In this document: piece after piece, positions 8,277 to 63,855 of the stretch | Numbering within the stretch: the stretch's first letter is position 1 | How the letters are laid out: each line of letters begins with the position of its first letter | Virus record (IMG/VR): IMGVR_UViG_3300044638_005305 | Span: 1 to 63,855 of that record | Source: a virus | Taxonomy: Duplodnaviria > Caudoviricetes | DNA: 63,855 bases | Strand: one strand, 5' to 3' | Program-made: the position numbers and the translations under genes | Notes under the pieces: model-generated | Databases searched by the model: none | The model's input: the letters and a program-made list of their open reading frames with translations, nothing else | What the model was told of the DNA's origin: nothing

Positions 8277-8305
8277 AAAATAATGGTTTAATGATTAATA
8301 AAGCA

Positions 8306-8362
8306 CAAAGATAAAATATTTTTCCATTTATACTTGTTTTTTAATAATAAAGTTTATGTTTG
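8306..8362. promoter_or_regulatory. Divergent Bacteroidota sigma-A promoters
   Basis: TATCTTTG (minus, 8306-8313) and TATGTTTG (plus, 8355-8362) match TAnnTTTG. Confidence 0.6.
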
Positions 8363-8372
8363 TATCGTAATT

Positions 8373-8603: not shown

Positions 8604-8619
8604 AACAAAAAACAATAAT

Positions 8620-10341: not shown

Positions 10342-10579
10342 TTTAATCATAGTCAAACCAAAGCAGAAAGAAGAAGTAACCAAATCAGGTATTATCATAT
10401 TTAATGAAAAGCCTAAGAAATACAGCGAGGGCGTAGTTGTTAAGGTGGGTGTTTTGGAGCAAGATATATCGGTTGGGGATACATTAGCCTATACAAACAA
10501 TGTAAATGCCAATGTAGATTTTAATGGCGAAAAATGCCATGTGATTAATGAGTTCTACGTTTTAGCTAAGATAGGATAA
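10331..10579 (+). CDS. groES: Co-chaperonin GroES (Cpn10)
   Basis: LIIVKP..EEVTKSGIII...EGVVVKVG...ISVGDTL...VLAKI. Confidence 0.88.
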   Translation: MENNLIIVKPKQKEEVTKSGIIIFNEKPKKYSEGVVVKVGVLEQDISVGDTLAYTNNVNANVDFNGEKCHVINEFYVLAKIG

Positions 10580-45767: not shown

Positions 45768-46189
45768 TTTCCTCTATTGACAATATTGAGATTTATCCAA
45801 TACTTACCTATCTGTTCGCTTTTGGCTAATATGTTTGAATTGCATAATTCTTTTACACCTCTGCTAAATCTTGTCCGACTTATTTTGTATTCTTTTTCGT
45901 ATCCTTCACTCCAACTTAGCCAAATATAGCTTTTTCCATAATCCATCTCATTAACAAGTATGATGAACATTATTATCCCAGCAGAATTTAGAGATGCAAG
46001 GCAAGTCATTTCTTCTACATAAAACTTGACAAATTTCTTTTTGTCATACCTTTCCTCTCTTTTGATAAATACATTATCCCTTATTAATTCGCCCTCATTG
46101 GTAACGCCACTAACACCTTCTACGGAAACGTATCTGCTTCTTGTTCCAATATATCGTTCTCTGTCAAAAGGGCTTTCTTTGTGCTTCAT
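45764..46189 (-). CDS. RepL-like winged-helix replication protein
   Basis: KFVKFY, SRTRFSRGVKEL...ILAK...GKYWIN. Confidence 0.55.
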   Translation of the reverse strand: MKHKESPFDRERYIGTRSRYVSVEGVSGVTNEGELIRDNVFIKREERYDKKKFVKFYVEEMTCLASLNSAGIIMFIILVNEMDYGKSYIWLSWSEGYEKEYKISRTRFSRGVKELCNSNILAKSEQIGKYWINLNIVNRGN

Positions 46190-46202
46190 AAGTAGTTAAG
46201 TA

Positions 46203-46326
46203 TGTTGGGATTTGCCAACAATGTAGATTAGTTTACAGGAATAATGTCGGGGAATATCAACATTTGCAAAAACGCAATCTTTGATTATCAATGATTTATG
46301 TCAAAACTTCTCTTAGCCAGTAGTTA
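46203..46326 (+). other. Composite attI/attP-like cassette docking site A
   Basis: TGTTGG-N6-CCAACA (46203), TGTCGG-N6-TCAACA (46245), IHF consensus TATCAATGATTTA (46286), core TTCTCTTAGCCAGTAG|TTA. Confidence 0.75.
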
Positions 46327-46536
46327 TGAGAAATGTTTTGTCAGAGTATCCTCCAACAATTCTATTGCGGTTTCTAATCCACTTTCCATACCATCTCTCC
46401 ATCTTGCTTCACCATCATCAAATGATTGTGTCAGTTGCCTACTTCTTTCAAGTTGGCTTCGTAAATCTACCAAAACACTTCTCATAACAACAGGTTGTTG
46501 CAATGCGGTTTCGGTACTATGTGTTACATCTTCCAT
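46324..46536 (-). CDS. Cassette-encoded hypothetical protein
   Basis: Starts in the attC loop; the stop is the TTA of the core site. Confidence 0.7.
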   Translation of the reverse strand: MEDVTHSTETALQQPVVMRSVLVDLRSQLERSRQLTQSFDDGEARWRDGMESGLETAIELLEDTLTKHFS

Positions 46537-46605
46537 TTTATTTAGTTTTATCTGTTAATAATAGTTTAGTTCATTTAATCCGCACTGACAACAACCTGCG
46601 GTACG
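46324..46605 (+). mobile_element. Gene cassette A1 with attC-like hairpin (46482-46611)
   Basis: Start GTTATGAGAAATGTTTTG is complementary to CAAAACACTTCTCATAAC (46471-46488); arms CAGGTTGTTGCAATGCGG / CCGCACTGACAACAACCTG; closing GTTA at 46605. Confidence 0.8.
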
Positions 46606-46615
46606 TTACAGCCCC

Positions 46616-46852
46616 CTAAAACCCAACATCATACTTGATGCCATGCTTCTCAAACACTTGCTTCATCTTCTCCACAGATACGCCATTAAATCTTATTGGA
46701 CTACTTACCACTTCCTCCTGACACTTCATTAAGTCATCAAGCATTTCGCATTGATGCTTTAATACAATCCCAATAGCTAAATCAGAAAACGCTTCTTTAG
46801 GCATTTCCTCTTTACTTGCAATAGCAAACAAGTTGGCTAATTCCTCTTTCAT
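46616..46852 (-). CDS. Hypothetical protein
   Basis: ATGA-coupled ORF. Confidence 0.65.
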   Translation of the reverse strand: MKEELANLFAIASKEEMPKEAFSDLAIGIVLKHQCEMLDDLMKCQEEVVSSPIRFNGVSVEKMKQVFEKHGIKYDVGF

Positions 46853-47151
46853 GATTCTTTGTTTATGTAGTTATCTAATCGAGTAATTTTACTTTCCTTA
46901 ATCTCATCTACACTCCTATCCAACCCATGAAGCATCAGCCTTAACTGACTACACATTATCTCTACATCAGCTACCTCCTCTGCTATATTTCCCATCCCAA
47001 TAGACGGATTCCTTCTCCACTTATTAATGGCTTGTATCAATTCAGCACATTCCTCTATCGCCATATCCATTTGCGCTCGAACACCAAACTTAAAAATAGC
47101 TTTCTTGTAAATTGTTTCGGAACTATTTTTCATGCCATTTGGTTTTCTCAA
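46849..47151 (-). CDS. MazG-like nucleotide pyrophosphohydrolase
   Basis: AIEECAELIQAINK...IAEEVADVEIM. Confidence 0.85.
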   Translation of the reverse strand: MRKPNGMKNSSETIYKKAIFKFGVRAQMDMAIEECAELIQAINKWRRNPSIGMGNIAEEVADVEIMCSQLRLMLHGLDRSVDEIKESKITRLDNYINKES

Positions 47152-47951
47152 AACAAAGATAATGACTTAACCCAAATAAACAACTAAAATTGCGGAATTT
47201 GTCAAAATAATTGCAGAATCCGCAATTCGTTTCTAATGATACCAACGCTTTGAGGTACGCTATATCTTAGAGTGTATTAAGATTGACCACTTTTACCCTA
47301 TTCCAATCCCATTTTGTCCTTCTTTCCCCCTCCAACACACCCTCATTTTACACCCCTCTACCATGCAATTTACACCCTATTTCTGTTAAGTATTGTTAAT
47401 GATAAGTATTTTAACAATTTTCCTTTAGTTAGCCATATCAACAATTTACCCAATCCCTTGCGCAATCTACATCTTAGCTGTTTTTATGTAAGCAATTTGG
47501 TCGTGCTGATGTGATGGTTACCTTTTACCCCACCCCCTCCATTTTTTTTGGCAAGCCCGTTTTTTTTGCGCCCCCTCCCTCTCGAATTTAATGGATTCCT
47601 TAAAGTTCCGGTTCAATTTATAAACCTGATGCAGCGCGTGCATAATCTAATATAATTCTAATAGAATTAATACATACTAATGTTGGCGCGTGTCTTGTGG
47701 TTTATGTGTTTATTTTGTAGTGTATCAATCTATTTATTGTATGTTATAACATCTATTCTACTGCATCAAGGTAGGATAAGTATGCGCAACATATTATAAT
47801 TTAGTTTAAATTAAACTAATTAGCGAAATTTCGTTGGATACATAATTTACTTATGCTTCTGGTGAAGCAATTATCCAACAACAAACATTTACAAATTGAT
47901 TTTTTGATTAACTTAGCATTAACGCGCGCGGGCGTATGTCGAACAGGTTAT

Positions 47952-48293
47952 ATGAGTAGAACAGAATTGAATCAAAGTTTAACGGGCGGATATTGCTTGT
48001 ATTTAGTTCGCAGGAAGTTCCCGCAGCTTAGTTGGTTCGGATGCTCAATTTGCGCTTTAATTGGCATTTATGGGCGCTGTACGGCAAAGGTTGCAAGTGA
48101 GCTAACGGGCAACAAAGGAGCGCGAAATAAATTATCTAAATTAGTTGATTCTGGATATATTATAAAGCGGTCAAACTTCTATTATTTAGATAATAAGGGG
48201 CGCGAAGTGTTTAATGAGTATTTTAGCTTGTATAATAGCCGGATGCAAGCAATCAACAAACATTTAGCTGATGAAGTACTAAAGGAGCTTTGA
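47952..48293 (+). CDS. Winged-helix protein
   Basis: LSKLVDSGYIIKR...YYLDNKGRE. Confidence 0.55.
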   Translation: MSRTELNQSLTGGYCLYLVRRKFPQLSWFGCSICALIGIYGRCTAKVASELTGNKGARNKLSKLVDSGYIIKRSNFYYLDNKGREVFNEYFSLYNSRMQAINKHLADEVLKEL

Positions 48294-48553
48294 TAGCCAT
48301 GTACTAAAGGAACGCCAATTTTATCTAATTGGCTGTATTAAGGAATTTTTTTTTAGATTATTTGGGCGGAAATTGCTTAATTTTCATGCTGCTATTTTTG
48401 TGCTATTTATTAGCTATGATTATAACTATTTATTTCTTTTAACTTTTTTTAACATTAGCTTATATCCTTTGGTATTACTACGTTTCATAAATTAGTCTTG
48501 CCTAATTTCATGCTATTTACTTTTTCAATGTTTGTATGTTTGGTTTATGTTTC

Positions 48554-48561
48554 TACCTTTG
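48554..48561 (+). promoter_or_regulatory. Early-region promoter -7 box
   Basis: TACCTTTG about 50 bp before ardA. Confidence 0.55.
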
Positions 48562-48609
48562 ATTTCAGATAGCGCAATTGCTATCAATTAAACCACTAAA
48601 ATAAACAAC

Positions 48610-49182
48610 ATGAAAACGACAACAACAGGCACAGCGCCACAACTATTTTTAACTGATTATGCAAGTTATAACAACGGCAGCCAGTTTGAGTTTGGGCATT
48701 GGGTTGATTTAACGCAATTTTCAGACGCGGACGAGCTTATGGAATACATAGAAACACACTTCGCGGAATGTGACGAAAAAAGCCCGCTCGATAGCCCACG
48801 CGAGGAAATTATGTTCACAGACTTTGAAGGTTTCCCGAAGTGTTTTTATTCAGAAAGTATGGATACGGATACAATGGAAAAACTTTTTGAATTTATAGGC
48901 ATGGATGAGGACGATAGAAAGTTAATTGAAATGTACGCGGACGCAACAGGATACGATATTTCAGATATTGAACTTTCGCACGCGCAAAATAATTTTCATG
49001 GCACAGCGGACAGCGAAGCGGAATTCGCGGAACGTATGGCGGAGGAATGTGGCGAAATTCCAAAGGATATTCCGGCATGGATAGTAATAGACTGGGAAGC
49101 GTCTTGGAACTGTAATTTGCGCCATGATTATATGACAGCAACAGACGAGGACGGAACGATATATTTTTTCCTTAATCATTAA
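48610..49182 (+). CDS. ardA: Antirestriction protein ArdA
   Basis: YASYNNGS..GHWVDL, EEIMFTDFEGFP, FHGTADSEAEFA, IDWE; highly acidic DNA mimic. Confidence 0.88.
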   Translation: MKTTTTGTAPQLFLTDYASYNNGSQFEFGHWVDLTQFSDADELMEYIETHFAECDEKSPLDSPREEIMFTDFEGFPKCFYSESMDTDTMEKLFEFIGMDEDDRKLIEMYADATGYDISDIELSHAQNNFHGTADSEAEFAERMAEECGEIPKDIPAWIVIDWEASWNCNLRHDYMTATDEDGTIYFFLNH

Positions 49183-49281
49183 AACCATCCGCGCTCCTTT
49201 AGTGGTATGCATCGAATGCAGGCGCGGAGCTAATTTATAAACCAAATGACAGGCGCAGTCAATAACAGGCGTAAAACCAAT

Positions 49282-49806
49282 ATGAGAACAGCAAGATTAA
49301 AAGTCTTTAAATTCAATGAATTGACAGACGAAGCAAAAAAGACAGCGATTGAAAAACTTAGCACAATTAACGTTGATTATGACTGGTGGGAATTAACCTA
49401 TGAAGACGCGGAGCAAATAGGACTTAAAATAACTTCTTTTGACCTTGACAGAAACAGACAGGCAAAGGGAATGTTTTTAGATAATGGCATTAGTTGCGCA
49501 AAACTAATTTTAGAGAATCATGGCGAAACGTGCGAAACATACAAGACGGCAAAAAGTTTTTTAGCTGAAATAGAGCAAATAGAAACTAATTTTGAAAGTG
49601 TTGATACTTCGGACTTTGACAACATACAAGAAAAGGAGGACGCAATACAGGACGCTGAATCTGATTTTTTAAACTCAATTTTAGAGGACTATTCTATAAT
49701 ACTGCAAAACGAGTGCGAATATTTGCAAAGCGATGAAGCTATAACTGAAACTATTATAGCCAACGACTACGAATTTACACAGGACGGGAAAATATTTAAT
49801 TCATAA
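49282..49806 (+). CDS. Acidic early hypothetical protein
   Basis: FKFNELTDEAKKTAIE...YLQSDEAITETIIANDYEFTQDG. Confidence 0.75.
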   Translation: MRTARLKVFKFNELTDEAKKTAIEKLSTINVDYDWWELTYEDAEQIGLKITSFDLDRNRQAKGMFLDNGISCAKLILENHGETCETYKTAKSFLAEIEQIETNFESVDTSDFDNIQEKEDAIQDAESDFLNSILEDYSIILQNECEYLQSDEAITETIIANDYEFTQDGKIFNS

Positions 49807-49852
49807 CAAAACCGTAAAAAAAACTATTTTCTATAACCTACAAAAAACCAAT

Positions 49853-50125
49853 ATGAAAGATTTATTTTCAACACCGGAGCTTATCCCCTCAGAAATAATG
49901 GCAATTTTAAACACATTCGAAGACGAAACCTATTCAGAATGTGAGCGGGTAAAATTAGAAATTGAGCAACATGGCTACACTTTTGACTATTATTTAGACG
50001 CACAGCCATATAATCTAAGGAAAGCAAAAACTAAAAAGCCCTGTAATATTTCAGACGATTGCGGAGCTTTTAAAGCGGTTGAAGCTGAACTATTAAGCCC
50101 AAATGGAATAAAAATAGGTTGGTAA
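49853..50125 (+). CDS. Early hypothetical protein
   Basis: ORF with A-rich RBS. Confidence 0.65.
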   Translation: MKDLFSTPELIPSEIMAILNTFEDETYSECERVKLEIEQHGYTFDYYLDAQPYNLRKAKTKKPCNISDDCGAFKAVEAELLSPNGIKIGW

Positions 50126-50207
50126 TATGAAAGCCAAAATTTACAAAACTAATTCCGGGTATTAAGATACATAGAATTAAGATATTTAAACCACTTAATA
50201 AACTAAC

Positions 50208-50453
50208 ATGATAAATATAAGCCCAAACCTATTCAACGCGGATATTTTAGAAGTATTCGCGGACGGGGAGCAAATCGGAACTATTAAAATAGTGCGGGAG
50301 CTTGAAGAGTATGAAGCAAAACCAAAGGACGGGCAACCCGTAACGCTTCGCACTTTAAACCTTTGTAAAAACTATTTTCAAAACTTATGCAAGGGACGGG
50401 AGCGGAAAACAGAAACTAATTCAGAACCACAAAACCAATTGAATTTATTTTAA
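50208..50453 (+). CDS. Early hypothetical protein
   Basis: Ends in QLNLF, a beta-clamp-binding-like motif. Confidence 0.65.
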   Translation: MINISPNLFNADILEVFADGEQIGTIKIVRELEEYEAKPKDGQPVTLRTLNLCKNYFQNLCKGRERKTETNSEPQNQLNLF

Positions 50454-50473
50454 AAACTAAAAACCAATAAAAA

Positions 50474-51013
50474 ATGAAAATTTTAAAAAATTGCAGCGTA
50501 ACTAAACTAAAAGAGTATAGCCGCTCATACGGAAATCCTGAAACAGTATCTTTTGCTTATATTTTTGAGCATGATAAAATAATCATTTGCCTTGATGAAA
50601 TAGGCAGAAACATCCGAACATTTAACAAAGGCACAAAAGTATTGATAAGTTACAAAGGGACTGAAATTTCAGAACGCAGCTTTAAAATAGCGACAAATAA
50701 GGCAGTAAAAGCACATGAGGAAAGGAAAGCCCAAGACAAACTAATACAGGAGGCGCAAATGGCAAAAGAAAGCGAAATAAACGCGCTCCAGTTAGCTAAG
50801 TGGGAGGACTTTTTGAAATCCAATACAGAAAAGCTCAATCAATATGCTGAAATAGTAAGGACAAGACCGAGCAATGCAAGCAGGAGCGGAAATTGGAGAA
50901 GAATTTTAAAACTCAAATTTGCTAAAAATTGCAATTCTGAAAGTTTTGAAAATTGCCCATCACCGGCACAATTAAACGAAACTATTTTTAAACTCATAAA
51001 TCAAACAGCATGA
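50474..51013 (+). CDS. Early hypothetical protein
   Basis: ORF with A-rich RBS. Confidence 0.7.
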   Translation: MKILKNCSVTKLKEYSRSYGNPETVSFAYIFEHDKIIICLDEIGRNIRTFNKGTKVLISYKGTEISERSFKIATNKAVKAHEERKAQDKLIQEAQMAKESEINALQLAKWEDFLKSNTEKLNQYAEIVRTRPSNASRSGNWRRILKLKFAKNCNSESFENCPSPAQLNETIFKLINQTA

Positions 51014-51291
51014 AAAAACCATTAAACAAAACAAGCGAAGCAGTAGGAGCAACAACGGAAACTGATGTTATATTCTACTATCATGAAGCAAACGATGATT
51101 TATTTGCCTTCTTTCCTTCTGATAATTACGACAGCAACGGACTAATGAAAACAAGCTATTCACACATTGGACAGCATTCAGGATGCAGCCCGGAATACAC
51201 AACCGAAGCAAGAAAAGCAACGCCAAAGGAATACGCGGAACTAAAAGCGGAACTAATACAGATAGGCTATTCATTAAACATTTTAAACTAA
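51010..51291 (+). CDS. Early hypothetical protein
   Basis: LFAFFP...SYSHIGQH...ATPKEYAELKAELIQIGY. Confidence 0.7.
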   Translation: MKKPLNKTSEAVGATTETDVIFYYHEANDDLFAFFPSDNYDSNGLMKTSYSHIGQHSGCSPEYTTEARKATPKEYAELKAELIQIGYSLNILN

Positions 51292-51295
51292 TATC

Positions 51296-51481
51296 ATGCA
51301 AAACACATACGGAGTATTAATAGACGGAGCGCATATAGACGTTTCAAAAACGGAACGAGGCGCAAAAACTTATGCTACAAAACATGGATACAGCATTGTA
51401 ACAATCCGGTACAATTGCGGATATGTAGCGGAGCAAATAGCGGAAAAGATTAATAACAAGTGGGTAACCATCAAAATCTAA
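51296..51481 (+). CDS. Early hypothetical protein
   Basis: Packed ORF. Confidence 0.6.
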   Translation: MQNTYGVLIDGAHIDVSKTERGAKTYATKHGYSIVTIRYNCGYVAEQIAEKINNKWVTIKI

Positions 51482-51485
51482 TATC

Positions 51486-51641
51486 ATGCACGATTTATTT
51501 GAAAAACCAATAAGACAAAGGAAAGTAAGGAAAAGGGTTTATGCTTATCAGTACAGAAATGGAGTGATAAACATAAACGGAACTAAGTATCTCGAATACT
51601 CAATAACTGATGCTATCAAAGCATGGAGAAAAGCAAACTAA
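51486..51641 (+). CDS. Early hypothetical protein (51 aa, not in track)
   Basis: MHDLFEKPIRQRK...; same TAATATCATG junction as the previous gene. Confidence 0.55.
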   Translation: MHDLFEKPIRQRKVRKRVYAYQYRNGVININGTKYLEYSITDAIKAWRKAN

Positions 51642-51667
51642 TTAATAAACCAATAAAAACTAAAAAC

Positions 51668-51961
51668 ATGGTCAGAGTACACGAAATTCAAAAAGAAGCG
51701 CAAAGCATAATGCCATTTATTGACCTATATGGCAGCGTCCTTCTGTTCACTATTTTAAAGCAATATCCATTTGTAAGCTGGAGGGACAAAACTATTCCAC
51801 AAGAAGGCAGCCCCACAAGACTAACAAAGGATATTGAAATGGAAAAAGCAAAAGCGCTCAATGTCAAAAAACTAATCGCGCACAAGGACGGAAAAACTAC
51901 CATCTTCACAGATAAGGGAGTATATCAATTTTTCGCAGCAGGACAACAAGTAAAAAATTAA
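51668..51961 (+). CDS. Early hypothetical protein
   Basis: ATG after A-rich RBS. Confidence 0.6.
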   Translation: MVRVHEIQKEAQSIMPFIDLYGSVLLFTILKQYPFVSWRDKTIPQEGSPTRLTKDIEMEKAKALNVKKLIAHKDGKTTIFTDKGVYQFFAAGQQVKN

Positions 51962-51981
51962 TCAAAATAAAAACTAACATC

Positions 51982-52164
51982 ATGAAAAATGAACTAAAAA
52001 AAGCAATCATTGACTTCATTTTTGAAAATGAAAAGGAATTTCAACTACCAAACAAAACGATGGAGAAATTTCGCGCCTACATCTATGACAGCTCCGGCAG
52101 CTATTTAATAGGCGGAAACGAAGTAAGAGATTTTATTATTAACGCTATAAAACTAATAAGCTAA
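51982..52164 (+). CDS. Early hypothetical protein
   Basis: Packed ORF. Confidence 0.6.
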   Translation: MKNELKKAIIDFIFENEKEFQLPNKTMEKFRAYIYDSSGSYLIGGNEVRDFIINAIKLIS

Positions 52165-52349
52165 TGGAACAGACATACAGACAACAAGAAAAGGAAATCC
52201 GAGTACTTCTGGGCAGAATCAAACAGAAAACAAGAGGCTTTGTGATGCAAACCAAAGACCCATACTTTGAAGATTTGCAGAAAGTAAAGGCAGATTTGAC
52301 CGAAATAGACGCTTTTTTAAGTGATAAGTACTTGACAAGCAAAAAGTAA
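52164..52349 (+). CDS. Early hypothetical protein
   Basis: TAATG-coupled ORF. Confidence 0.6.
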   Translation: MEQTYRQQEKEIRVLLGRIKQKTRGFVMQTKDPYFEDLQKVKADLTEIDAFLSDKYLTSKK

Positions 52350-52374
52350 TTTTAAACCAATAAACAAAAAAACC

Positions 52375-52686
52375 ATGAAAAACTACATAATACAAGACAG
52401 AGAAGCCGGAAATGAAATTGAATCATTCTCTACCATTCAAGAAGCTCAAAAAACATTGCTTCAATATGAGCAAACCGATAAAAGAGAAGGCAACTACACG
52501 CCCGGCTTCTATGAGATAAAAACCGCTACATTCTCAAATCTAAAATCATTCTACATCGAATTTTTGAATAAAAAGAAAGGCTATTCAAAAGATGTAGCCT
52601 ACTTTGAAACCTATGATAAGGCAATTAGCTGGGGACGCGAATTTTTAGAAAACTTCAATAGTGACATGATAAAGATAAGTTTATGA
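52375..52686 (+). CDS. Early hypothetical protein
   Basis: Packed ORF. Confidence 0.65.
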   Translation: MKNYIIQDREAGNEIESFSTIQEAQKTLLQYEQTDKREGNYTPGFYEIKTATFSNLKSFYIEFLNKKKGYSKDVAYFETYDKAISWGREFLENFNSDMIKISL

Positions 52687-52967
52687 AAGCGCAAATCTAC
52701 AAAACCAATAACGGATATGAAGTGCTAACAAGCGATAGGCGACTATACTTGATTGACACAACGCAAACTAAGTTATTCAAACTGCTTATAGGGCAAGTTG
52801 GCTCATCATGGCAAAGTACTGGAAAACTAATTTACGGAGCGATACCCAACAGAATCAAAACAATATTTTTTCAAATTCAAAAACAAAGCCAAAATGAAAG
52901 CAATACAAGCGGGCACAACAATTGTACCATACGACAAAGTTGTATCTATCCAACTATTAAGCAGTGA
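52683..52967 (+). CDS. Early hypothetical protein
   Basis: ATGA-coupled ORF. Confidence 0.55.
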   Translation: MKAQIYKTNNGYEVLTSDRRLYLIDTTQTKLFKLLIGQVGSSWQSTGKLIYGAIPNRIKTIFFQIQKQSQNESNTSGHNNCTIRQSCIYPTIKQ

Positions 52968-53064
52968 CAAAGATAGCGCAGCGATTTTTTACGACACATT
53001 AGGGATGCTACATAGATGTTCAAACATTGAATACCAAGCGTTTATTAATCGCCTTAAAAACTAA
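52894..53064 (+). CDS. Early hypothetical protein (56 aa, not in track)
   Basis: MKAIQAGTTIVPYDKVV...; fills the gap to the next ATG. Confidence 0.5.
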   Translation: MKAIQAGTTIVPYDKVVSIQLLSSDKDSAAIFYDTLGMLHRCSNIEYQAFINRLKN

Positions 53065-53065
53065 G

Positions 53066-53239
53066 ATGATAACAGAATTTGACATCATTCACATTAAATC
53101 TTTGATACACAAACGGAAAAGCCGTTTAAGGTCGTATATCAATATGTCATCGAGGGCTGATGTAAATAGCGAAATAAACCAATTAGAAACAGACATTCAA
53201 TCCCTTGAAAGGATATTATCGGTAATTCAAAAAAACTAA
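53066..53239 (+). CDS. Coiled-coil hypothetical protein
   Basis: ATG immediately after the previous stop. Confidence 0.55.
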   Translation: MITEFDIIHIKSLIHKRKSRLRSYINMSSRADVNSEINQLETDIQSLERILSVIQKN

Positions 53240-53263
53240 TTTGGTAATTTAAAACGTTCTTTG

Positions 53264-53420
53264 TATTTTTGTTGCAGTTGATTTAACACGAGGTAAGAGT
53301 CGGGGGATGAATCATATCGAAACTAAATTGCACATTTCAATATTTTTCCTTGCCTATCAGGCAGAAAACGTCCCGAAACTCTTACCATAAGCTAAAAACT
53401 TATGCCTTCGGGCGTTTTTT
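53264..53420 (+). promoter_or_regulatory. Promoter plus leader/attenuator-like structure upstream of the integrase
   Basis: TATTTTTG; GGTAAGAGT pairs with ACTCTTACC; alternative AAAACGTCCCGAA/TTCGGGCGTTTT terminator-like stem. Confidence 0.55.
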
Positions 53421-53766
53421 CAATGGTGGTGCTTAAACTTGTTTCGCCCACACAGCTATCCTAAACTGTCAATGAAAGTAGTAAGTTGAGCAGATTAAAC
53501 CTTTTCAGTTGGTAACTTGGCTGAATCGGAAAACATTAAACGGGCAAAGTGTTGGCAATGTATCAAGAGGCGACAACCAACGACAAATGCAAGATGAAAT
53601 AAGCTACCCGTTTACCCCTATGGATGGCGGACGCTGTACTCGGCTATGAAGTTGTAAGGAATCTAATATAGGCAACTGAAATCTATACAAGCTATTAAGA
53701 TAACTTGCATGGATATAAGCCTCTTTATCTAAAAATTAAACTATTCAAACAAAATAAAACTAAATC

Positions 53767-54981
53767 ATGAGCATCAGAATCAAACTAAGAAAGGACGCGC
53801 CAAACAAACAAGGTCAATATCCAATAGTTTTGGTATATCAAAAAGGCAGGAAAGAAACTATTTTCAGCACAGGCAAATACACCAATGCTGAATTTTTTAC
53901 CCAAGATACACAGAATCCGCTTTCCAGTGGGCAAGACTACAAAGCCAATAACATACTTATCAGAAACTTATACTCAAAACTGAATAACATAGCAGATGGC
54001 TATTTTATGGCAAATAACGAGTATCCGAGCAACGAGTGGGTAAAGTTACAATGGAACACTAAAAACGCTCCAAATCAGCCTGTATTTGATTTCTACGATA
54101 GGTTTATGCAATATCAGCAGACGAGGGGAGCAAGTTCGGTAAGTTATGGTACAGCCATAAACTATAAAAACGTAAAAAATAAACTAATCGGATACGAAAG
54201 AAAGTCCGGGCATCCGATAGCCTTTGAATCATTCAATGAATCTTTTGCCAATAAATTCAGCCAATATCTGATTAAGGAACACGACCTATTACCTAATTCA
54301 GTAGGCGAGAAACTAAAAATCGTAAAAACTTTCCTACGTTGGTGCATAAAACAAGGCGTGAGAATCCCATCAGCTAATTTAGAGGCATTTAGGGGCGGAA
54401 ATGATAAAACATGGAAGCTACATCTAACTATTGAAGATTTGAAGGCTCTTGCCCAAACTAATACGCAATACGAAGAAACTAAAGATGGTTTCCTTTTGCA
54501 ATCTTGTCTTGGAGTGAGGTATTCCGACCTGCAAACTATCGTTTCAACTAAAATAATCAAGGAGGGCGAAGACTTCTACTACATAACCAATACTCAAAAA
54601 ACCAATAAGTTGATTAAGGTGAAGTTGATTGACATGGCTAAAGAGATATTGAACAGAAGAAGCGGAAACTGGATACCATCTAATATCCAAATGAATACAG
54701 AATTAAAACTAATTTTTAAATCTATACGAGGATTTGATGAAATGGTAAGTGTATCGCAGGGTAGTGGAAACTTAAAAAGGGAGCATACAAAACCGAAATA
54801 TGAATTTGTATCAACCCATACAGCAAGGATAAGCTATATCAATATCATGAGAAACTTAGGTGTGGATGATTTTACTATTTCAAACATTACCGGGCAAAGC
54901 CTATCTACTTTGAGAGGATATTATCATTCATCAGCCAAAGATACAGATTCAGCTATGAATGCGCTTAATTTAGCTTTTTGA
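53767..54981 (+). CDS. int: Tyrosine recombinase/integrase (Bacteroidota type: arm-binding, SAM-like and catalytic domains)
   Basis: N-terminal YPIVL..STG arm domain; GVRYSD, TQKT, STHTAR, ITGQ..LRGYY. Confidence 0.92.
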   Translation: MSIRIKLRKDAPNKQGQYPIVLVYQKGRKETIFSTGKYTNAEFFTQDTQNPLSSGQDYKANNILIRNLYSKLNNIADGYFMANNEYPSNEWVKLQWNTKNAPNQPVFDFYDRFMQYQQTRGASSVSYGTAINYKNVKNKLIGYERKSGHPIAFESFNESFANKFSQYLIKEHDLLPNSVGEKLKIVKTFLRWCIKQGVRIPSANLEAFRGGNDKTWKLHLTIEDLKALAQTNTQYEETKDGFLLQSCLGVRYSDLQTIVSTKIIKEGEDFYYITNTQKTNKLIKVKLIDMAKEILNRRSGNWIPSNIQMNTELKLIFKSIRGFDEMVSVSQGSGNLKREHTKPKYEFVSTHTARISYINIMRNLGVDDFTISNITGQSLSTLRGYYHSSAKDTDSAMNALNLAF

Positions 54982-54997
54982 ATTGTCTTGGATTCCA

Positions 54998-55099
54998 TGT
55001 TGCTATTTACCGACTTTTGCTTTTTAAATGTTGGCTTTTACCGACATTTGTTTTTATAAGTTATTGATTATCATTGAAACTTCTCTTAGCCAATAGTTA
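54998..55099 (+). other. Composite attI/attP-like cassette docking site B
   Basis: TGTTGC-N6-CCGACT (54998), TGTTGG-N6-CCGACA (55029), IHF consensus on minus strand (55057-55069), core TTCTCTTAGCCAATAG|TTA; starts 17 bp after the int stop. Confidence 0.78.
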
Positions 55100-55348
55100 G
55101 CGGTCATTGCCTTTCGACCTTGACAGCATATCTGTTATTGCTTTACAATTATTATCAAACTCTTCATCGGACATTTCAGCTATTTCTCTACCTATTTTAT
55201 GTATTTCGCTATTCTCGTCATCTAATGGGTCAATAGATGGCAACGAACCGCTAACACTAAATAAAAGCAATAGCTCGCTTAGTGCTTGTTGAACAGGCAT
55301 CGTGCCTTCATCAACCTTTATCAATATATTTTCAATTTGTTCTTTCAT
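55097..55348 (-). CDS. Cassette-encoded hypothetical protein
   Basis: Starts in the attC loop, reads through the arm (LLLLFSVSGSLP), stops on the core TTA. Confidence 0.7.
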   Translation of the reverse strand: MKEQIENILIKVDEGTMPVQQALSELLLLFSVSGSLPSIDPLDDENSEIHKIGREIAEMSDEEFDNNCKAITDMLSRSKGNDR

Positions 55349-55375
55349 ATCGCTACTGCTTTTATTATTTTACCG
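55097..55375 (+). mobile_element. Gene cassette B1 with attC-like hairpin (55249-55381)
   Basis: GTTAGCGGTCATTGCC vs GGCAACGAACCGCTAAC (55239-55255); arms AATAAAAGCAATAGC / GCTACTGCTTTTATT; GTTA at 55375. Confidence 0.8.
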
Positions 55376-55755
55376 TTATAAGCAAACGGTAGCTACTTTG
55401 AAACAGTCTGATTAATTTTCCTTATAGTCATTACTACTTCATTCCATTCATTATTTAATTCAGGGCAAATTTTAGCTATATCTATTCCTTTTAATGCACA
55501 TTCGTTAAATAATGGCGCTAATTCTTTTTCTCTGCTTTCTAATGATTTTAAAGCCCATCCTTTAGTAAACATATCTACTTCGCTTTGCTCATCGTTTAAT
55601 ATTTTAATTGAATATTCTATCCAGTCTTTCATATTTTTATTGTTTTTTAAATTAATTTTTCATAGTAACATTCGTAACCGTCAGCTTATAACAGCACCTA
55701 ATAAACAGGCGGACATCTACTAGGTTTCCACCGCCCGTCTATTAGCTGCAAAACG
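55376..55755 (+). mobile_element. Gene cassette B2 with attC-like hairpin (55686-55761)
   Basis: GTTATAAGCAAACGGT vs ACCGTCAGCTTATAAC (55677-55692); arms CTAATAAACAGGCGG / CCGCCCGTCTATTAG; GCAAAACGTTA at 55755. Confidence 0.82.
55393..55632 (-). CDS. Cassette-encoded hypothetical protein
   Basis: Entirely inside cassette B2. Confidence 0.7.
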   Translation of the reverse strand: MKDWIEYSIKILNDEQSEVDMFTKGWALKSLESREKELAPLFNECALKGIDIAKICPELNNEWNEVVMTIRKINQTVSK

Positions 55756-55771
55756 TTATCTGAATGACTTC

Positions 55772-55832
55772 TCATACCTTATCGGGTATAATTCAAGCTA
55801 ATGAATGATATATCATACCCGTCAGGGTATAA
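55772..55832. repeat. Pair of palindromic boxes TCATACC-N6-GGTATAA
   Basis: 55772-55791 and 55813-55832, 41 bp apart. Confidence 0.7.
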
Positions 55833-55889
55833 ACTGCAGATTTTTATCCAAATACTGAATCCCTATCTTTAAATCTGCTTATCCATAAC

Positions 55890-59726: not shown

Positions 59727-59984
59727 TTATTTTGTTTTAGTTGTGAATAATTTTCTTAATGATTTCCTATCAGTAGATTTCATTTGATACTCATAATAAT
59801 ATCCTGCAGTTCCGTATCTGGTCTTAAATTTAATCTTTTTTCTTTTGCAGTAAAATTTGTGTTTGCGCTCCAGTTCGTCAATTCGAGTTGGCAGTTTGAC
59901 AGTTCCAAATTCTTTGACTCCTTTTAAAGTTGTTAACACTTCGCCCGAAAGCAAGGCGTTGAAAATCGCTTGTTTTTGTGTCAT
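59727..59984 (-). CDS. Winged-helix protein
   Basis: ALLSGEVLTTL...LPTRIDELE. Confidence 0.65.
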   Translation of the reverse strand: MTQKQAIFNALLSGEVLTTLKGVKEFGTVKLPTRIDELERKHKFYCKRKKIKFKTRYGTAGYYYEYQMKSTDRKSLRKLFTTKTK

Positions 59985-60242
59985 TTAATTGATTTTATGG
60001 TTTAAAAATATGTCTATTGAAAGTTTATCCGAATAATTAAAAAGCATTTCCAAATCCATCTTTTTTTTCGATTCAAATTCTATGATTCTCCACCTGCCAA
60101 CATTTAACCAGTTAGCCATAAATGATTGTGTGAATCCTGCACTATCTCTTAAATGTCGGCAATCGTCAACAATCTTGTTGTAATTATCTTTGAATTGTTG
60201 GTAATTCTCGACATGGTTATTTTCTAAATCGTTGGTATCCAT
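59985..60242 (-). CDS. XRE-like HTH protein overlapping docking site C
   Basis: LRDSAGFTQSFMANWLNVGRWRIIEFES. Confidence 0.7.
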   Translation of the reverse strand: MDTNDLENNHVENYQQFKDNYNKIVDDCRHLRDSAGFTQSFMANWLNVGRWRIIEFESKKKMDLEMLFNYSDKLSIDIFLNHKIN

Positions 60243-60278
60243 AGGTTTGGTTTAAAACATTCTCTTACCCAATAGTTA
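60154..60278 (+). other. Composite attI/attP-like cassette docking site C
   Basis: TGTCGG-N6-TCAACA (60154), TGTTGG-N6-TCGACA (60196), IHF-like box (60225-60237, one mismatch), core TTCTCTTACCCAATAG|TTA. Confidence 0.75.
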
Positions 60279-60665
60279 GCGGAAATGCCGTTTTTAGGCA
60301 TCCCACTTTATTAAGTCCTTCACTTCTTCAATGGCTTGTTCTAAAGTTTCTCCGTTACCTAAAAATGCTTCTGTATTATAGGTTCGTCCAAACTCCGCAA
60401 CTATTCTTATTACTTGCTCTTTAGAAAAAACGGCACTATCCGCTAACATAGGGTTGGAAGAAATTTTAAATGCTTTCAGTGCTTCGATTACCGCCTTTGC
60501 TTCATTGTAGCTAATCAAAATACCTTCTTGCATTCCCCAGCTTACATCATGCATATTCTCGCCTTCTTTTTCCGCAAAGGCTACGCTTTTCTCTAATCTT
60601 TTAATTAAGTGTTCCATATTTATATTTTTGTTAAGCATTTAAAACTATCTCCAACCCTCGTAACG
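60276..60665 (+). mobile_element. Gene cassette C1 with attC-like hairpin (60441-60671)
   Basis: GTTAGCGGAAATGCCGTTTTT vs AAAAACGGCACTATCCGCTAAC (60426-60447); arms AGGGTTGGAAGAAATTTTAAATGCTT / AAGCATTTAAAACTATCTCCAACCCT; GTTA at 60665. Confidence 0.82.
60294..60617 (-). CDS. Cassette-encoded hypothetical protein
   Basis: Starts in the attC loop and reads through the arm (NPMLADSAV). Confidence 0.7.
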   Translation of the reverse strand: MEHLIKRLEKSVAFAEKEGENMHDVSWGMQEGILISYNEAKAVIEALKAFKISSNPMLADSAVFSKEQVIRIVAEFGRTYNTEAFLGNGETLEQAIEEVKDLIKWDA

Positions 60666-60887
60666 TTATAAGCCATTTTGTAAATCCTTACACATCATTT
60701 CACAAGCCTTGCCAAATCCTACTGCAAAGCTATTTGCTTTCTCTTGTGCCATTTCATCACTACCATACAAGCTAACAAAGTGCTTTTGTAGTTTAATCAA
60801 ATTTTCACCAGAAAAACGGCTTATAACATCAGTTATAAGTAATGGCTGGCTTTGTGGTTTATCAATGTTTTTTGCTTCTATTGTCAT
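60666..60887 (-). CDS. Cassette-encoded hypothetical protein
   Basis: Starts in the attC loop (PLLITDVISRF); stop on the core TTA. Confidence 0.7.
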   Translation of the reverse strand: MTIEAKNIDKPQSQPLLITDVISRFSGENLIKLQKHFVSLYGSDEMAQEKANSFAVGFGKACEMMCKDLQNGL

Positions 60888-60943
60888 TTGTTCTAAATTT
60901 AAAGTGAGTAGTTCTAATCAGCCACTACTCATAGCTGTAACCG
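60666..60943 (+). mobile_element. Gene cassette C2 with attC-like hairpin (60821-60949)
   Basis: GTTATAAGCCATTTT vs AAAAACGGCTTATAAC (60812-60827); arms CAGTTATAAGTAATGGCTG / CAGCCACTACTCATAGCTG; GTTA at 60943. Confidence 0.82.
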
Positions 60944-60959
60944 TTACATCGAAATCCGC

Positions 60960-61394
60960 TTAATTAATACTCGCCACTATCTCACCAATATAATCTCTAA
61001 TCTTCTCGGTGTATTTGCCATCGAATTTTAAATCTGCTGCTATCCTATCTCTGCCATTAATCACACTTGCATGATGTCTATTATTTAATTTTCCTAATTC
61101 AGTAACAGTCAATCCGCAATGCTTATAAGCAAGATAAAAGTGGATATGTCTTGCCATTACAATATTAGTAAGCCTTGATGTACCTTTTAATTTTTCAAGT
61201 GAAATTTCGGTAACTTTTGAAACAATCTTTAGTAACTCATCATGCTTTACGACATTGTTTTTTACGTCTTTTGGCTGTGGCTTTTTTTTGCCAACCATAA
61301 AATGGATATGTGAAAATGTCTTAGGCTCAAATTCCTTTTCGTAGAATCTTGAAAATGTTACTTGTTTACGTCTGTTTATGATTTGCATACCCAC
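60960..61394 (-). CDS. DnaA C-terminal (domain IV)-like HTH protein
   Basis: LKGTSRLTNIVMARHIHFYLA...LTVTELGKLNNRHHASVING. Confidence 0.85.
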   Translation of the reverse strand: MGMQIINRRKQVTFSRFYEKEFEPKTFSHIHFMVGKKKPQPKDVKNNVVKHDELLKIVSKVTEISLEKLKGTSRLTNIVMARHIHFYLAYKHCGLTVTELGKLNNRHHASVINGRDRIAADLKFDGKYTEKIRDYIGEIVASIN

Positions 61395-62116
61395 GCTGTT
61401 TTATCGTTAATAATTACTTCACCATCCCAGTTCACCCAGTTAATGTCTTTTAGCTTTTGATACCTTTTTTTACTAACAAACTGCATGTAAAAAAATTCAT
61501 CTTCATCCATTATTTTGGCGTTCCTTAATAGTTCATCTGCAACTCCGATTAAAGGATATTTTTCTTCACACGTTGCTAAAATCTTATCGCACGTTTCTTC
61601 ATCTTTTGGAACTTCATGAATGTAAAACCTTTCTTCCAAAGGGAACGGATATTCACTCCAATCATCTTGCCCGAATTCTTCTGGCTTAGTTAAATAGTTA
61701 ATCAGATAACCATAATCAACATTCAATGCCATCATTTGAACTTGTAATTGAAGATAGTACTTTTTAGCCAATTTATCGCACTGTTCAAAGTAGTTGAATA
61801 TTGAGTATTGACATTTAGAATCTGCAACCCATTTGCCCTCTAAAATAGCGTCAGGCGTAGCTCCAAGTTTATCATTCACTTTATAAAATGTTTGATTTGG
61901 CTCACCCCCATAAATAGAGGTGAGTATTTCAATTGCCGTTACTTCATTTACTATTCCATGCAACATTGGTTTTGTGCTGATTTCTTTTTTAAGTCCGTTT
62001 AAGTTTTCGGCTATTTCAAAGATATAGTTCAAAGCTGTTTTACCTTGACCACCTGCCATTAAATCCCCGATTCTACTTGCACTAAAGAAACCTTTTTTAT
62101 TATTTTGATTTATCAT
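61376..62116 (-). CDS. YqaJ/lambda-exonuclease-like recombination nuclease
   Basis: FSASRIGDLM, MLHGIVNE, LGATPDA, DSKC, YYLQLQVQM. Confidence 0.85.
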   Translation of the reverse strand: MINQNNKKGFFSASRIGDLMAGGQGKTALNYIFEIAENLNGLKKEISTKPMLHGIVNEVTAIEILTSIYGGEPNQTFYKVNDKLGATPDAILEGKWVADSKCQYSIFNYFEQCDKLAKKYYLQLQVQMMALNVDYGYLINYLTKPEEFGQDDWSEYPFPLEERFYIHEVPKDEETCDKILATCEEKYPLIGVADELLRNAKIMDEDEFFYMQFVSKKRYQKLKDINWVNWDGEVIINDKTAWVCKS

Positions 62117-62675
62117 GTTTGCTTCTTTTATTATTTTTCATCATTGACAAATAGCCTTTTGAAACCTTATAAATTTTCATTATTTCAGATGGCTTAATTT
62201 TTTCTAAAATCATTCTTTTCATATTTTCAATTTCGCAATCTTTAAATTTATGAAAGTTGCATTTTTCGCCTTTTCGTGGATTCCTAAACAATCCCATCCC
62301 TTTTGTGCATTTACCTAACACTATATACGAATGCTTTTCATTTTCAGAATAAGTAACCCATTCCAAATTTTCAACCCTATTATCTGTTTTTATGCCATTT
62401 ATATGATTCACACATGGTTTATTTTCAGGATTTATTATAAAAGATTGAGCAACAAGCCTATGTACATTTTTTGTGTTTTTTTTACCCAAACAACAAGCTA
62501 AATATGTATTTTTTGTCCTTAGGGATAATTTTAGTATCTTTTCTTTTGACTTTCTAAAAAAGTTATTTTTGGTTTTAATAAATCGGGATAACGATTTTAT
62601 CCTTCCTAAATTACTAACCTCGTACTTGCCTTCATATCCTAAAATAGGCTTCCAAATTTCTTTTTGTTTTTTCAT
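62100..62675 (-). CDS. NUMOD4-HNH homing endonuclease
   Basis: EIWKPILGYEGKYEVSNLGRIKS, VHRLVA, VNHINGIKTDNRVENLEW. Confidence 0.92.
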   Translation of the reverse strand: MKKQKEIWKPILGYEGKYEVSNLGRIKSLSRFIKTKNNFFRKSKEKILKLSLRTKNTYLACCLGKKNTKNVHRLVAQSFIINPENKPCVNHINGIKTDNRVENLEWVTYSENEKHSYIVLGKCTKGMGLFRNPRKGEKCNFHKFKDCEIENMKRMILEKIKPSEIMKIYKVSKGYLSMMKNNKRSKHDKSK

Positions 62676-62792
62676 AAAAAATACCCACAAACATTACAAA
62701 GGCAATCCAGTCGAGCAGATACGCTCAAAAGGCAATGTAACGAATGTGGGATTTTTTAAATGTTTTCATAACTGGATTGCATTGCAAATATA
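62676..62792 (-). promoter_or_regulatory. Promoter plus attenuator-like leader of the HNH gene
   Basis: TATATTTG; GCAATCCAGT/ACTGGATTGC pairing competes with the long CCCACA/TGTGGG stem ending in T6 at the ATG. Confidence 0.6.
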
Positions 62793-62840
62793 GCAAAAGT
62801 ATTTATAAATACAAGAAATGAAGCCGTAAACATTCCTTTT

Positions 62841-63062
62841 TTATTTTCCATTGCATTCAGGGTTTTCGTTAAAAGACCTCCAGTTAGCTCCATTTACCAT
62901 TCTTTCCTCTATGCCATTTAGATAGTATGATTTTTGCATTAAAATTTCGTATTCAATAGCGTTTTCAACATAAAAATCAATTATAGATTTAGACATACAG
63001 TCTTTAGGCAAATATTTCTTAATGCTTTCATAAAGCATTTCCGATGCTGTTCTATTTTCCAT
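62841..63062 (-). CDS. Hypothetical protein
   Basis: Overlaps the SSAP stop; its 5' part is repeated at 1-81. Confidence 0.65.
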   Translation of the reverse strand: MENRTASEMLYESIKKYLPKDCMSKSIIDFYVENAIEYEILMQKSYYLNGIEERMVNGANWRSFNENPECNGK

Positions 63063-63855
63063 TTAGTTCGATTTTACGTTTAGTGAATAATGCCTTTGAT
63101 TTGCTTTGTTCAACAGGAAGTAAAGAATCGTAAAGCAGTCCTAATTCGTCAAGGTTATTGCATTTTGATAGCTTTTCTTTTATCAGTTCTAAATCAACTT
63201 CTACTTCAATCATTGGCAAATCTTCACCTGAGTAGATATAAAGCCCAAGTCCAAACATTGCAAGATTCTTAACTAAGCATCTCATAATTGCTGTGTTAAT
63301 ATCAAACATTGTGGCAGGGGTAACATCCTTATTAAATTTCTGATATACAACGTGCTTTTGCGCTCTGTTCGCGCCATCCATTACGGGCAATTGCATCGGG
63401 ATTGTTTCGCCATCAATAGTTACTTCTGTTTGAACCAAGTACCCTAAGTTTTCATCGAATAGGTAAGGTTTGCCATCAAAGTTTACAACTCTGTAATTTG
63501 CAGTTGCATAGCGTTTTTTGACCTCATTCCATGCCCACGACCAGCTAAGGTAAGAGAGTCCGTTTTTCTTTTCAATTTTGTCGGCACAATCTACCGAGCC
63601 TAATGTTTCAAATACTGTTTTCATTTGGTTTATTTGATTAATGCTGCAATCAAGATTACAGCGGTGAATAATAAAAAGTAAATAGCTAATTGAGCAATCC
63701 AACCCAACGAGCAAAAGTATTTAAGGAATCTCATACTCCTGGTCTAAATGTATCGGAAGTATTACACTCTCTGTAATATTCCGTATTGGAATTAAGAATA
63801 TCAATATCTTCTTTGAACTCTTTTGCTAAATGCTTTTCAGCTATAAGGATTCTCC
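62982..63855. repeat. Imperfect terminal overlap, copy 2 (Sak/Rad52-like allele)
   Basis: Same flanks as 1..850 with a different central gene body. Confidence 0.95.
63052..63624 (-). CDS. Sak/Rad52-like (DUF1071) single-strand annealing protein
   Basis: IEKKNGLSYLSWSWAW, LPVMD, DINTAIMRCLVKNLAMFGLGLYIYSGEDLP. Confidence 0.9.
   Translation of the reverse strand: MKTVFETLGSVDCADKIEKKNGLSYLSWSWAWNEVKKRYATANYRVVNFDGKPYLFDENLGYLVQTEVTIDGETIPMQLPVMDGANRAQKHVVYQKFNKDVTPATMFDINTAIMRCLVKNLAMFGLGLYIYSGEDLPMIEVEVDLELIKEKLSKCNNLDELGLLYDSLLPVEQSKSKALFTKRKIELNGK

Follow-up and report, generated by a model that had tools for sequence, protein, structure and literature searches.

The integron integrases (IntI) and the Xer recombinases have no arm-binding domain, and in Cre and Flp the position of the second catalytic His is occupied by Trp. 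A three-domain layout, with an arm-binding and a SAM-like domain in addition to the catalytic domain, is that of the IntCTnDOT subgroup, to which IntDOT of CTnDOT and IntN1 of NBU1 belong in the classification of Smyshlyaev et al. (2021, PMC8138268). The portion of that article drawn on here also describes other integrase subgroups with altered pentad residues, and the second His is not among the alterations described in it. The same layout was found in Int, the product of the int gene of a virus (Caudoviricetes) represented by IMG/VR record IMGVR_UViG_3300044638_005305; the whole record, 63,855 bp, was analyzed and is referred to as the window. A preliminary description made from the sequence alone had pointed out that int ends 17 bp before site B, which together with sites A and C makes up a set of composite sites, each containing two dyads of TGTYGG-type boxes, an AT-rich stretch and a 19-mer (TTCTCTTASCCARTAGTTA). 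This distance was confirmed. It had further proposed that Int, or a host integron-type or Xer-like enzyme acting in trans, processes hairpin cassettes at these sites. The analysis reported here indicated no co-occurrence of int and the sites among the relatives. Int is probably a bystander, the sites being the binding sites of a phage-encoded dimeric DNA-binding protein and the adjacency of int to site B not being recombinational.

The distribution of the sites was followed in 17 loci of the Int clade outside the window: L008, on G002 (53% identity), L009, on contig G001:C21 (54%), L010, and 14 metagenome loci (45–59%), these last being the clade members among 16 loci returned by a metagenome scan. 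In IMG/VR, no close relative of Int was found when the single protein was used for the scan, and one, L008, was found with a profile. The dyads were absent from all of the 17 loci. TGTYGG/CCRACA hexamers were lacking in the 500 bp upstream of int in all 14 of the loci examined for them, which included L010, and in the 200 bp downstream in 13 of these, L010 having one. The 19-mer was present among the Int relatives only in L008, with 3 mismatches; two small open reading frames (ORFs) and a distance of 430 bp separate it there from the int stop. The position of the gene itself is conserved in a family of lake-water Bacteroidota phages of about 60–70 kb, where int ends a plus-strand block of small genes and converges on a leftward primase block. 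The same arrangement was observed in L123, in L127 and in G001:C21, a complete circular relative of 71 kb (39-nt end overlap) whose int overlaps the end of the next gene. In another locus, L129, positions 1255-1320, directly past the int stop, hold palindromes (TATACC..GGTATA) with a layout like that of site B and an unrelated sequence.

When the search was directed at the sites, a scan of 2.9 million IMG/VR contigs for the dyad pair returned three records, G003, G005 and G673, each with the pair at site C, where both dyads, the 19-mer and the 42/64-bp spacing were as in the window. No Int was found in these records by protein search, nor by tblastn in G673, and neither PF00589 nor PF13102 gave a match. 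Their completeness according to CheckV was 100% for G673, 51% for G003 and 15% for G005, so that the absence of Int from the latter two weighs less. Among the relatives of the window primase (53–60% identity; 80 kept of 95 found), no int was detected by tblastn at E ≤ 1e-5. The 19-mer (≤3 mismatches) and the dyad pair were likewise missing from these 80, with the exception of L019, which is G005 and has both at site C, and a looser box pattern (N5-7) produced six single, unpaired matches. The tie between Int and the sites that the preliminary description had put forward is supported by neither set of loci; site-bearing phages without this int were the outcome it had set out in advance as speaking against Int and in favour of a host enzyme. 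The 19-mer was not found, with up to 1 mismatch, in 401 sampled Bacteroidota genomes, and there was no indication of a host IntI or Xer enzyme either. The picture of a recombinase stationed at a cassette docking site fails on comparison with the relatives.

Int is a phage-borne, arm-bearing (heterobivalent) tyrosine integrase of the class typical of Bacteroidota mobile elements, a classification based on hidden Markov model scores, domain content and fold ranks. The N-terminal arm-binding domain announced in the preliminary description was recovered by Pfam and precedes a core-binding domain of the SAM-like type; the catalytic domain behind them is diverged (Table 1). PHROGs assigned the protein to phrog_1, integrase (7.6e-18). 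In an AlphaFold2 model built with 83 homologues (mean pLDDT 91), the arm region formed a three-strand sheet plus a helix (residues 2-83), and the catalytic fold of the tyrosine recombinases was present in the predicted structure. When this model was compared with the PDB by Foldseek, 45 chains matched at E ≤ 0.001, all those listed being tyrosine recombinases. The Tn1549 integrase (4.6e-8) and the full-length lambda integrase (1.9e-7) came at the top, followed by XerA (2.2e-6), XerH (5.6e-6) and Cre, with IntI (2A3V; 1.3e-5) at rank 22. By sequence, a solved relative was obtained for the core-binding domain only, namely PDB 2KEY, a 'putative phage integrase' (clade profile, E 1.6e-4). The sole NCBIfam match at E ≤ 0.1 was XerC (TIGR02224), with 19.8 bits against a cut-off of 335.15; this library includes an IntI model, and no integron-integrase signature or extra domain was detected in Int by it at that threshold. 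The earlier assignment to a phage- or ICE-type enzyme (ICE, integrative and conjugative element) distinct from IntI was borne out by these results. The statement that int encodes the only recombinase of the genome held for site-specific enzymes, since no PF00589 or PF00239 match was found in the six frames of the window, where a recombinase as diverged as Int would escape PF00589 too; it did not hold for recombination proteins in general, because the phage also encodes Sak and YqaJ.

In alignments with its homologues, Int retained R251, K278, H351, R354 and Y385, and Gln377, within the motif ITGQS, replaced the second His of the RKHRH pentad, as had been noted before. A word-indexed search returned seven further clusters (P0002–P0008; 43–62% identity), every one with ITGQS, the next homologues being at ≤29% identity. 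The residues R, K, H, R and Y were thus invariant in the eight clade members, and the second-His column was Gln in all eight. An exhaustive search, which covered 1.84 billion representatives, gave 14 proteins with E ≤ 1e-30. Of its 24 best aligned proteins, 15 had Q in the same column, 2 had K, 6 had H and 1 had I, and all matches at E ≤ 1e-32 carried Q or K. The 75 more distant homologues had H in 67 cases, W in 4, I in 1, N in 1 and a gap in 2, which indicates that this column tolerates change. Since Gln is present in 8/8 clade members and Q or K in 17/24 of the best aligned proteins, the substitution was interpreted as an old conserved trait of the clade and not as a lesion or a sign of decay. 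On these alignments, Int is probably a working, catalytically competent enzyme, and its clade appears to be small, deep-branching and phage-borne, with Gln, and sometimes Lys, at the second His. A whole phage-borne, arm-bearing clade in this way keeps Gln (or Lys) where the pentad of the family has His or Trp. PF00589 was precomputed for none of the eight clade members; of the more distant homologues listed, nearly all have it. As the clade escapes this family, annotation pipelines based on PF00589 miss these integrases, and those relying on it may label such phages as non-temperate.

Table 1. Positions of the features in the window (strand + or −; residue numbers refer to Int; coordinates in other records are indicated)
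Feature	Position	Strand	Basis or detail
Tyrosine integrase gene (int), 404 aa	53767..54981	+	ORF call, Pfam, PHROGs, alignment, AlphaFold2, Foldseek
Integrase arm-binding domain	aa 5-78 (nt 53779-54000)	+	Pfam Arm-DNA-bind_5, PF17293, E 8.3e-8, 33.1 bits vs cut-off 22.6
Integrase SAM-like core-binding domain	aa 106-198 (nt 54082-54360)	+	Pfam Phage_int_SAM_5, PF13102, E 6.9e-11
Integrase catalytic domain	~aa 222-404	+	Diverged; R251, K278, H351, R354, Q377 (nt 54895-54897), Y385
Site A	46203..46326	−	Dyads 46203-46220, 46245-46262; 19-mer 46308-46326
Site A context			Flanked by the stop of ORF 46324-46536 (−) on one side and by the start codon (ATG, 46189) of the RepL-like ORF 45764-46189 (−) on the other
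Site B	54998..55099	−	Dyad B1 54998-55015 (degenerate, TGTTGC..CCGACT); B2 55029-55046; AT-rich spacer; 19-mer 55081-55099
Site C	60154..60278	−	Dyads 60154-60171, 60196-60213; 19-mer 60260-60278
ORF, 83 aa	55097..55348	−	Stop codon inside site B 19-mer; no Pfam or PHROG match
Conserved non-coding stretch	53241..53745	+	Promoter TTG-N20-TATTTTTG 53241-53271; hairpin + terminator ~53290-53420; RNA candidate 53425-53745
Hypervariable gene slot	Window 60279-60959; G003 8161-10368; G005 (L019) 2717-3358		Between DnaA_C-domain gene and HTH gene
Homologous-recombination module	61379..63714	−	YqaJ exonuclease 61379-62116; NUMOD4/HNH endonuclease 62103-62690; Sak single-strand-annealing protein 63055-63714

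Site B is a real copy of a repeated sequence and not a chance resemblance. The 19-mer occurred three times in the window at ≤3 mismatches, against 0.03 occurrences expected, and three copies were reached in none of 100 shuffles. Dyads of the form TGTYGG-N6-YCRACA numbered six, none of them outside the three sites, as compared with 0.1 in 200 shuffles, for a pattern derived post hoc from the same sites for which it was then scanned. The boxes were paired in helical register, with a dyad symmetry of approximately 8-6-8. The box-to-box spacing was 42, 31 and 42 bp at A, B and C, and the distance from the second box to the 19-mer was 63, 52 and 64 bp, respectively, so that site B is shorter by 11 bp, one helical turn, in each interval. 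Apart from a short TGATTATCA-like stretch, conservation among the three sites was limited to the boxes and the 19-mer and did not extend to the remaining DNA between them, and all three share one orientation.

The sites also have a recurrent relationship with the ends of genes. On the minus strand, the first bases of the 19-mer at A and B are the TAA that ends the preceding gene, whereas at C and in L004 the 19-mer lies some 10–15 nt past the preceding stop. In the latter two, an XRE-like helix-turn-helix (HTH) gene has its ATG 17–22 nt after the 19-mer (17 nt at C), and the site C dyads fall inside approximately codons 10–30 of this gene (59985-60242, minus strand). Its 85-aa product matched phrog_1373, transcriptional regulator (E 5.2e-4). 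Beside it is a winged-helix ORF, also of 85 aa (59727-59984). Just downstream of the site A dyads, on the same strand, lies an ORF whose likeness to RepL is a lead from the ESM Atlas (feature score 0.96, structure TM 0.78), Pfam and PHROGs giving no family match. At site B no gene follows on the minus strand, where there is only the 3′ end of int, and the ORF whose stop codon lies in its 19-mer closes the leftward primase/replication block and converges on int.

The hairpin character attributed to the sites in the preliminary description was not supported by folding, since single-strand DNA z-scores for A, B and C on both strands ranged only from -0.19 to -1.00. The half-sites differed at the Y position in five of the six boxes, and no single strand was consistently favoured for pairing. 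Together, the flat scores and the half-site differences argue for recognition of the duplex by a dimer rather than for hairpins. No dyad symmetry was counted by hand within the 19-mer, and no conserved RNA hairpin was seen around it on inspection. The right core arms previously likened to the XerD arm turned out to be the last codons and TAA stop of minus-strand ORFs, with a different version at site B (TTAGCGGTCAT), and they do not combine with the left side into a consistent dyad: in the 19-mer region, the left and right parts were complementary at 8 of 11 positions at A, 5 at C and 4 at B (hand count). A dif-like layout of inverted 11-bp arms around a 6–8 bp centre, judged without a real dif sequence, was absent from the three sites. 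Two other interpretations were tried and discarded. As a promoter, the 19-mer had no Bacteroidota -33/-7 pair, and a sigma-70 scan gave 7 sites against 8.7 expected. As for the boxes acting as terminators, B2 followed by TTTGTTTTT fits a terminator-like scan on the plus strand, as for int (2 in the region against 1.4 expected), and the T-run exists only at B2, A and C being without it.

The composite sites, with their two dyads, AT-rich stretch and 19-mer, would then be duplex binding sites for a dimeric phage protein. The first candidate for this protein would be the 85-aa HTH protein encoded over site C. On the minus strand, site A stands in front of the RepL-like gene and site C in front of the HTH gene, and their role would be regulatory; site B may be an orphan copy at the end of the replication operon. 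The adjacency of int and site B is peculiar to this genome and most likely incidental or at most regulatory; site B might at most terminate or insulate the converging int and replication transcripts. The three-site system merits study as a DNA-binding or regulatory system by itself.

Several observations weigh against this reading. No attP, attB or integrated copy was found, and integration of the phage by Int is therefore only putative. An attP must exist somewhere, an arm-bearing integrase needs repeated accessory sites, and apart from the RNA-like region upstream, site B is the sole non-coding DNA beside int. A segment of about 10 kb (45764-55844) holds int together with sites A and B, and G003, G005 and G673 do not have it; the extra sites and int thus do occur together in the window genome. 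The arm domains of the relatives are only 44–51% identical, so their arm sites could differ from those of Int. At site C the boxes are within a coding sequence, and their conservation in the relatives is for this reason partly a coding constraint. For the box binder there are only candidates: the 85-aa HTH protein, an HTH_39-like ORF of 85 aa (E 9.3e-4, below the cut-off), a DnaA_C-domain protein (60960-61394), the RepL-like ORF and the arm domain of Int itself. None of the sites has a TTG-N17-22-TAnnTTTG promoter, the nearest ones being at 62814-62785 (−), 47183-47154 (−) and 53241-53271 (+). Regarding the enzyme, solved catalytic domains gave no sequence match to Int, and PF00589 failed on it at E ≤ 0.1 with the protein and at E ≤ 1 with the six frames of the window.

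The integrated form and attB were looked for in bacterial genomes and in metagenomes. In a scan of one genome per species (185,579 species) with a profile of the Int clade, G001:C21 and a 1.2-kb fragment were the only matches; G001:C21, although placed in a Chitinophagales metagenome-assembled genome (MAG) by binning, is a free and complete phage contig. The 14 metagenome loci of the clade were all in phage context. A BLAST search of the region 53240-53766 against 300 Chitinophagales genomes plus G001 gave matches at E ≤ 0.01 in 33 of 301. These were considered as attB candidates and rejected as chance similarities, all of them except G001 measuring 21–45 nt, and the two inspected being in coding sequence with no tRNA near. 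As the hosts are lake bacteria that are probably uncultured and represented by fragmented MAGs, the absence of lysogens means little.

The possibility that site B is attP, or a part of it, was judged unlikely. According to it, the dyads would be arm- or core-type sites, the 19-mer or the DNA between the dyads would be the crossover region, and A and C would be look-alikes bound by the arm domain for regulation, or pseudo-sites. The 17 bp that separate site B from the int stop place it in the commonest position of an attP, Int has the domain for binding arm sites, and the dyads of about 8-6-8 have the layout of a tyrosine-recombinase core site. Moreover, L129 also has two palindromes, of other sequence and about 40 bp apart, right after int, and the genome-specific segment that bears int holds A and B too. 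All of this has to be set against the absence of dyads from the int loci of 17 out of 17 relatives, the persistence of site C in records without a tyrosine recombinase and the lack of a bacterial match to the 19-mer. In addition, three directly repeated substrates of Int would be expected to recombine with deletion of the primase region or the int block, and so to permit the loss of essential genes. All six box spacers differ in sequence, and such differences would block strand exchange for most members of the family, although IntDOT is said to be an exception to the need for spacer identity. Another account, in which Int leaves the phage unintegrated and has a Cre-like task at some other place, either separating multimers or closing a replicating genome or a plasmid-like prophage into a circle, was considered quite unlikely. 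It would agree with the failure to find an integrated copy in any collection searched, with the assembly of the relatives as free circular or terminally redundant genomes and with the RepL-like gene suggested by the ESM Atlas. Nevertheless, arm-binding domains accompany mobility integrases and not simple resolvases, according to the portion of PMC8138268 used, and missing lysogens are uninformative when the MAGs of probably uncultured lake hosts are fragmented. Both accounts were kept at these levels because A and B lie in the int segment, attP was not located, the arm domains have diverged and no promoter could be assigned to the sites.

Two further explanations place the sites at the boundary of exchangeable genes. 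The one closest to the preliminary description, in which they are docking sites where cassettes are inserted and excised site-specifically by Int or by a host enzyme of the IntI or Xer type, was the least probable of those weighed. The other, also very improbable, takes the 19-mer and the dyads as the portable boundary of a slot whose early-region accessory genes are swapped by dedicated recombination, either through the Gln-clade Int or through Sak/YqaJ; if true, this boundary would be a phage counterpart of the integron docking site, double-stranded rather than hairpin. The slot that separates the DnaA_C-domain gene from the HTH gene was occupied by unrelated inserts of 0.68 kb in the window, 2.2 kb in G003 and 0.64 kb in G005, within near-identical flanking early regions. 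In all three comparisons homology resumed exactly at TAACTA, the right edge of each insert being the first base of the 19-mer, whose lead-in is conserved (...ATTKC-N3-TAAC). A duplicated, circularly permuted 340-bp cassette of G001:C21 ends in a motif-like ...CATAACTATTGG and has its neighbour gene on opposite sides in the two copies. Nevertheless, the sites have no hairpin signal and the 19-mer no dyad symmetry, Int has no IntI features and does not co-occur with the sites, and the 19-mer has no match in the Bacteroidota genomes sampled. Homology between these phages also breaks elsewhere, at or near gene ends according to the ORF table, without a 19-mer. A conserved control region beside an accessory-gene slot would yield the same pattern, and the phage's own Sak/YqaJ could recombine short shared sequences. 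For hairpin cassette sites served by Int or by an IntI- or Xer-type enzyme of the host, neither a folding signal nor co-occurrence was observed, and of the two options raised in the preliminary description, cassette recombinase or bystander, the results supported the second. The marking of the edge of a hypervariable slot by the 19-mer may outweigh the integrase finding in value.

Upstream of int, the non-coding region 53240-53766 was 73–74% identical to G001:C21 and L121, versus 65–67% for the int coding sequence, and homologues of the RNA part of this region were seen only in these two. A long hairpin upstream of int showed compensatory changes. In the RNA candidate of approximately 300 nt that follows, 96.3% of cells were paired and 11 of 72 pairs were changed on both sides, against 4.3 +/- 1.6 such changes in shuffles (0 of 500 reached 11) and 0–2 in slid controls. 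Only three sequences, of which two hardly differed from each other, stood behind this covariation, and they had also served to derive the structure. The many G-U pairs of the candidate indicate the plus strand. No Rfam match was obtained for the region upstream of int (gathering score or E ≤ 1), and a conserved 24-mer of the candidate had no exact match in IMG/VR. The stretch around int was contained in 24 lake-water metagenome runs, among which no RNA dataset was listed. A covarying structured RNA candidate of this kind may outweigh the integrase finding in value.

The genome setting was that of a phage of Bacteroidota. The IMG/VR record, which is identical to the window and labelled as linear, has mutually repeated ends (1-850 and 62982-63855) with an identity of 95–96% rather than 100%, and G003, a close relative, continues unbroken across the junction of the ends. 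The end repeat and this continuity indicate that the genome is circularly permuted or terminally redundant; the imperfect repeat corresponds either to a terminal redundancy from two strains or to a strain-mixed circular assembly. The window primase/helicase best resembled, with identities of ≤38%, the proteins of Flavobacterium phages (177 of 210 matching records) and of phages of Cellulophaga, Tenacibaculum and Maribacter, and Bacteroidota-type TTG..TAnnTTTG promoters were present at the operon starts. No tRNA or transfer-messenger RNA genes were found in the window, nor in L004, L007–L010, L114 and L120.

In the homologous-recombination module, Sak was identified with an E value of 2.8e-47. 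A homing-endonuclease-like gene with NUMOD4 and HNH_3 domains lies between the YqaJ and Sak genes (62103-62690, minus strand); G003 does not have it at that position, and homology skips from 62101 to 62835. A 599-aa protein (5567-7366, minus strand) with an Mtd_N domain (major tropism determinant, N-terminal) was found near two 28-nt direct repeats, 149 bp apart (5231-5258 and 5380-5407), both of which are present in G003. In G005 (L019, 8742-9839), the terminase large-subunit gene is apparently split just past the Walker A region by an intein-like insert, as judged from the translation only. The 340-bp cassette of G001:C21 is present as two inverted copies with 97% identity (within 6341-6968 and 40447-39785; L102, L103 and L104) and contains an 80-aa Cys-rich ORF. 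Its neighbour gene, of 83 aa, comes after the cassette in one copy, where it is degenerate, and before it in the other.

Compared with known systems, the proteins nearest to Int by domain content are those of the IntCTnDOT type. The more distant homologues with names were all Bacteroidota integrases with PF17293, PF13102 and PF00589. Int differs from the IntCTnDOT-type proteins by its low identity (≤29%), by a catalytic domain that is missed by PF00589, by having one residue fewer between Gln377 and the Tyr and by a beta-hairpin before the Lys that is four residues longer. The departure from the pentad described for that subgroup in the portion of PMC8138268 used concerns the first Arg, whereas in Int it is the second His that is changed to Gln. 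The subgroup resides on ICEs, and the window Int on phages, without known att sites. In structure, the best matches to the Int model were the integrases of lambda and of Tn1549/Tn916 (solved structures 1Z1G, 5J0N, 6EMY), and the lambda match included the arm domain (411 aligned columns, E 1.9e-7). The sequence identity to both was 13–16% and the whole-chain TM-score about 0.5, because the domains are posed differently. The catalytic fold is also common to IntI (2A3V) and XerC/XerD/XerH. Unlike Xer and IntI, Int has an arm domain, and its XerC score was far below the cut-off; the sites beside it had neither attC-like folding nor dif-like dyads.

As for the sites, the C1 operators of P1 are reportedly scattered in the genome, one of them controlling the repL replicon, and TP901-1 is said to have three CI operators. 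Sites A, B and C differ from such operator sets in having no canonical promoter, in the location of the site C boxes in a coding sequence and in that the repressors are candidates only. They also differ by the asymmetric conserved 19-mer of each site, at or just past the stop codon of the preceding gene. They resemble these operator sets in that the copies are kilobases apart, with one before a RepL-like gene and one at the gene of a regulator, and in that the boxes are paired at whole helical turns.

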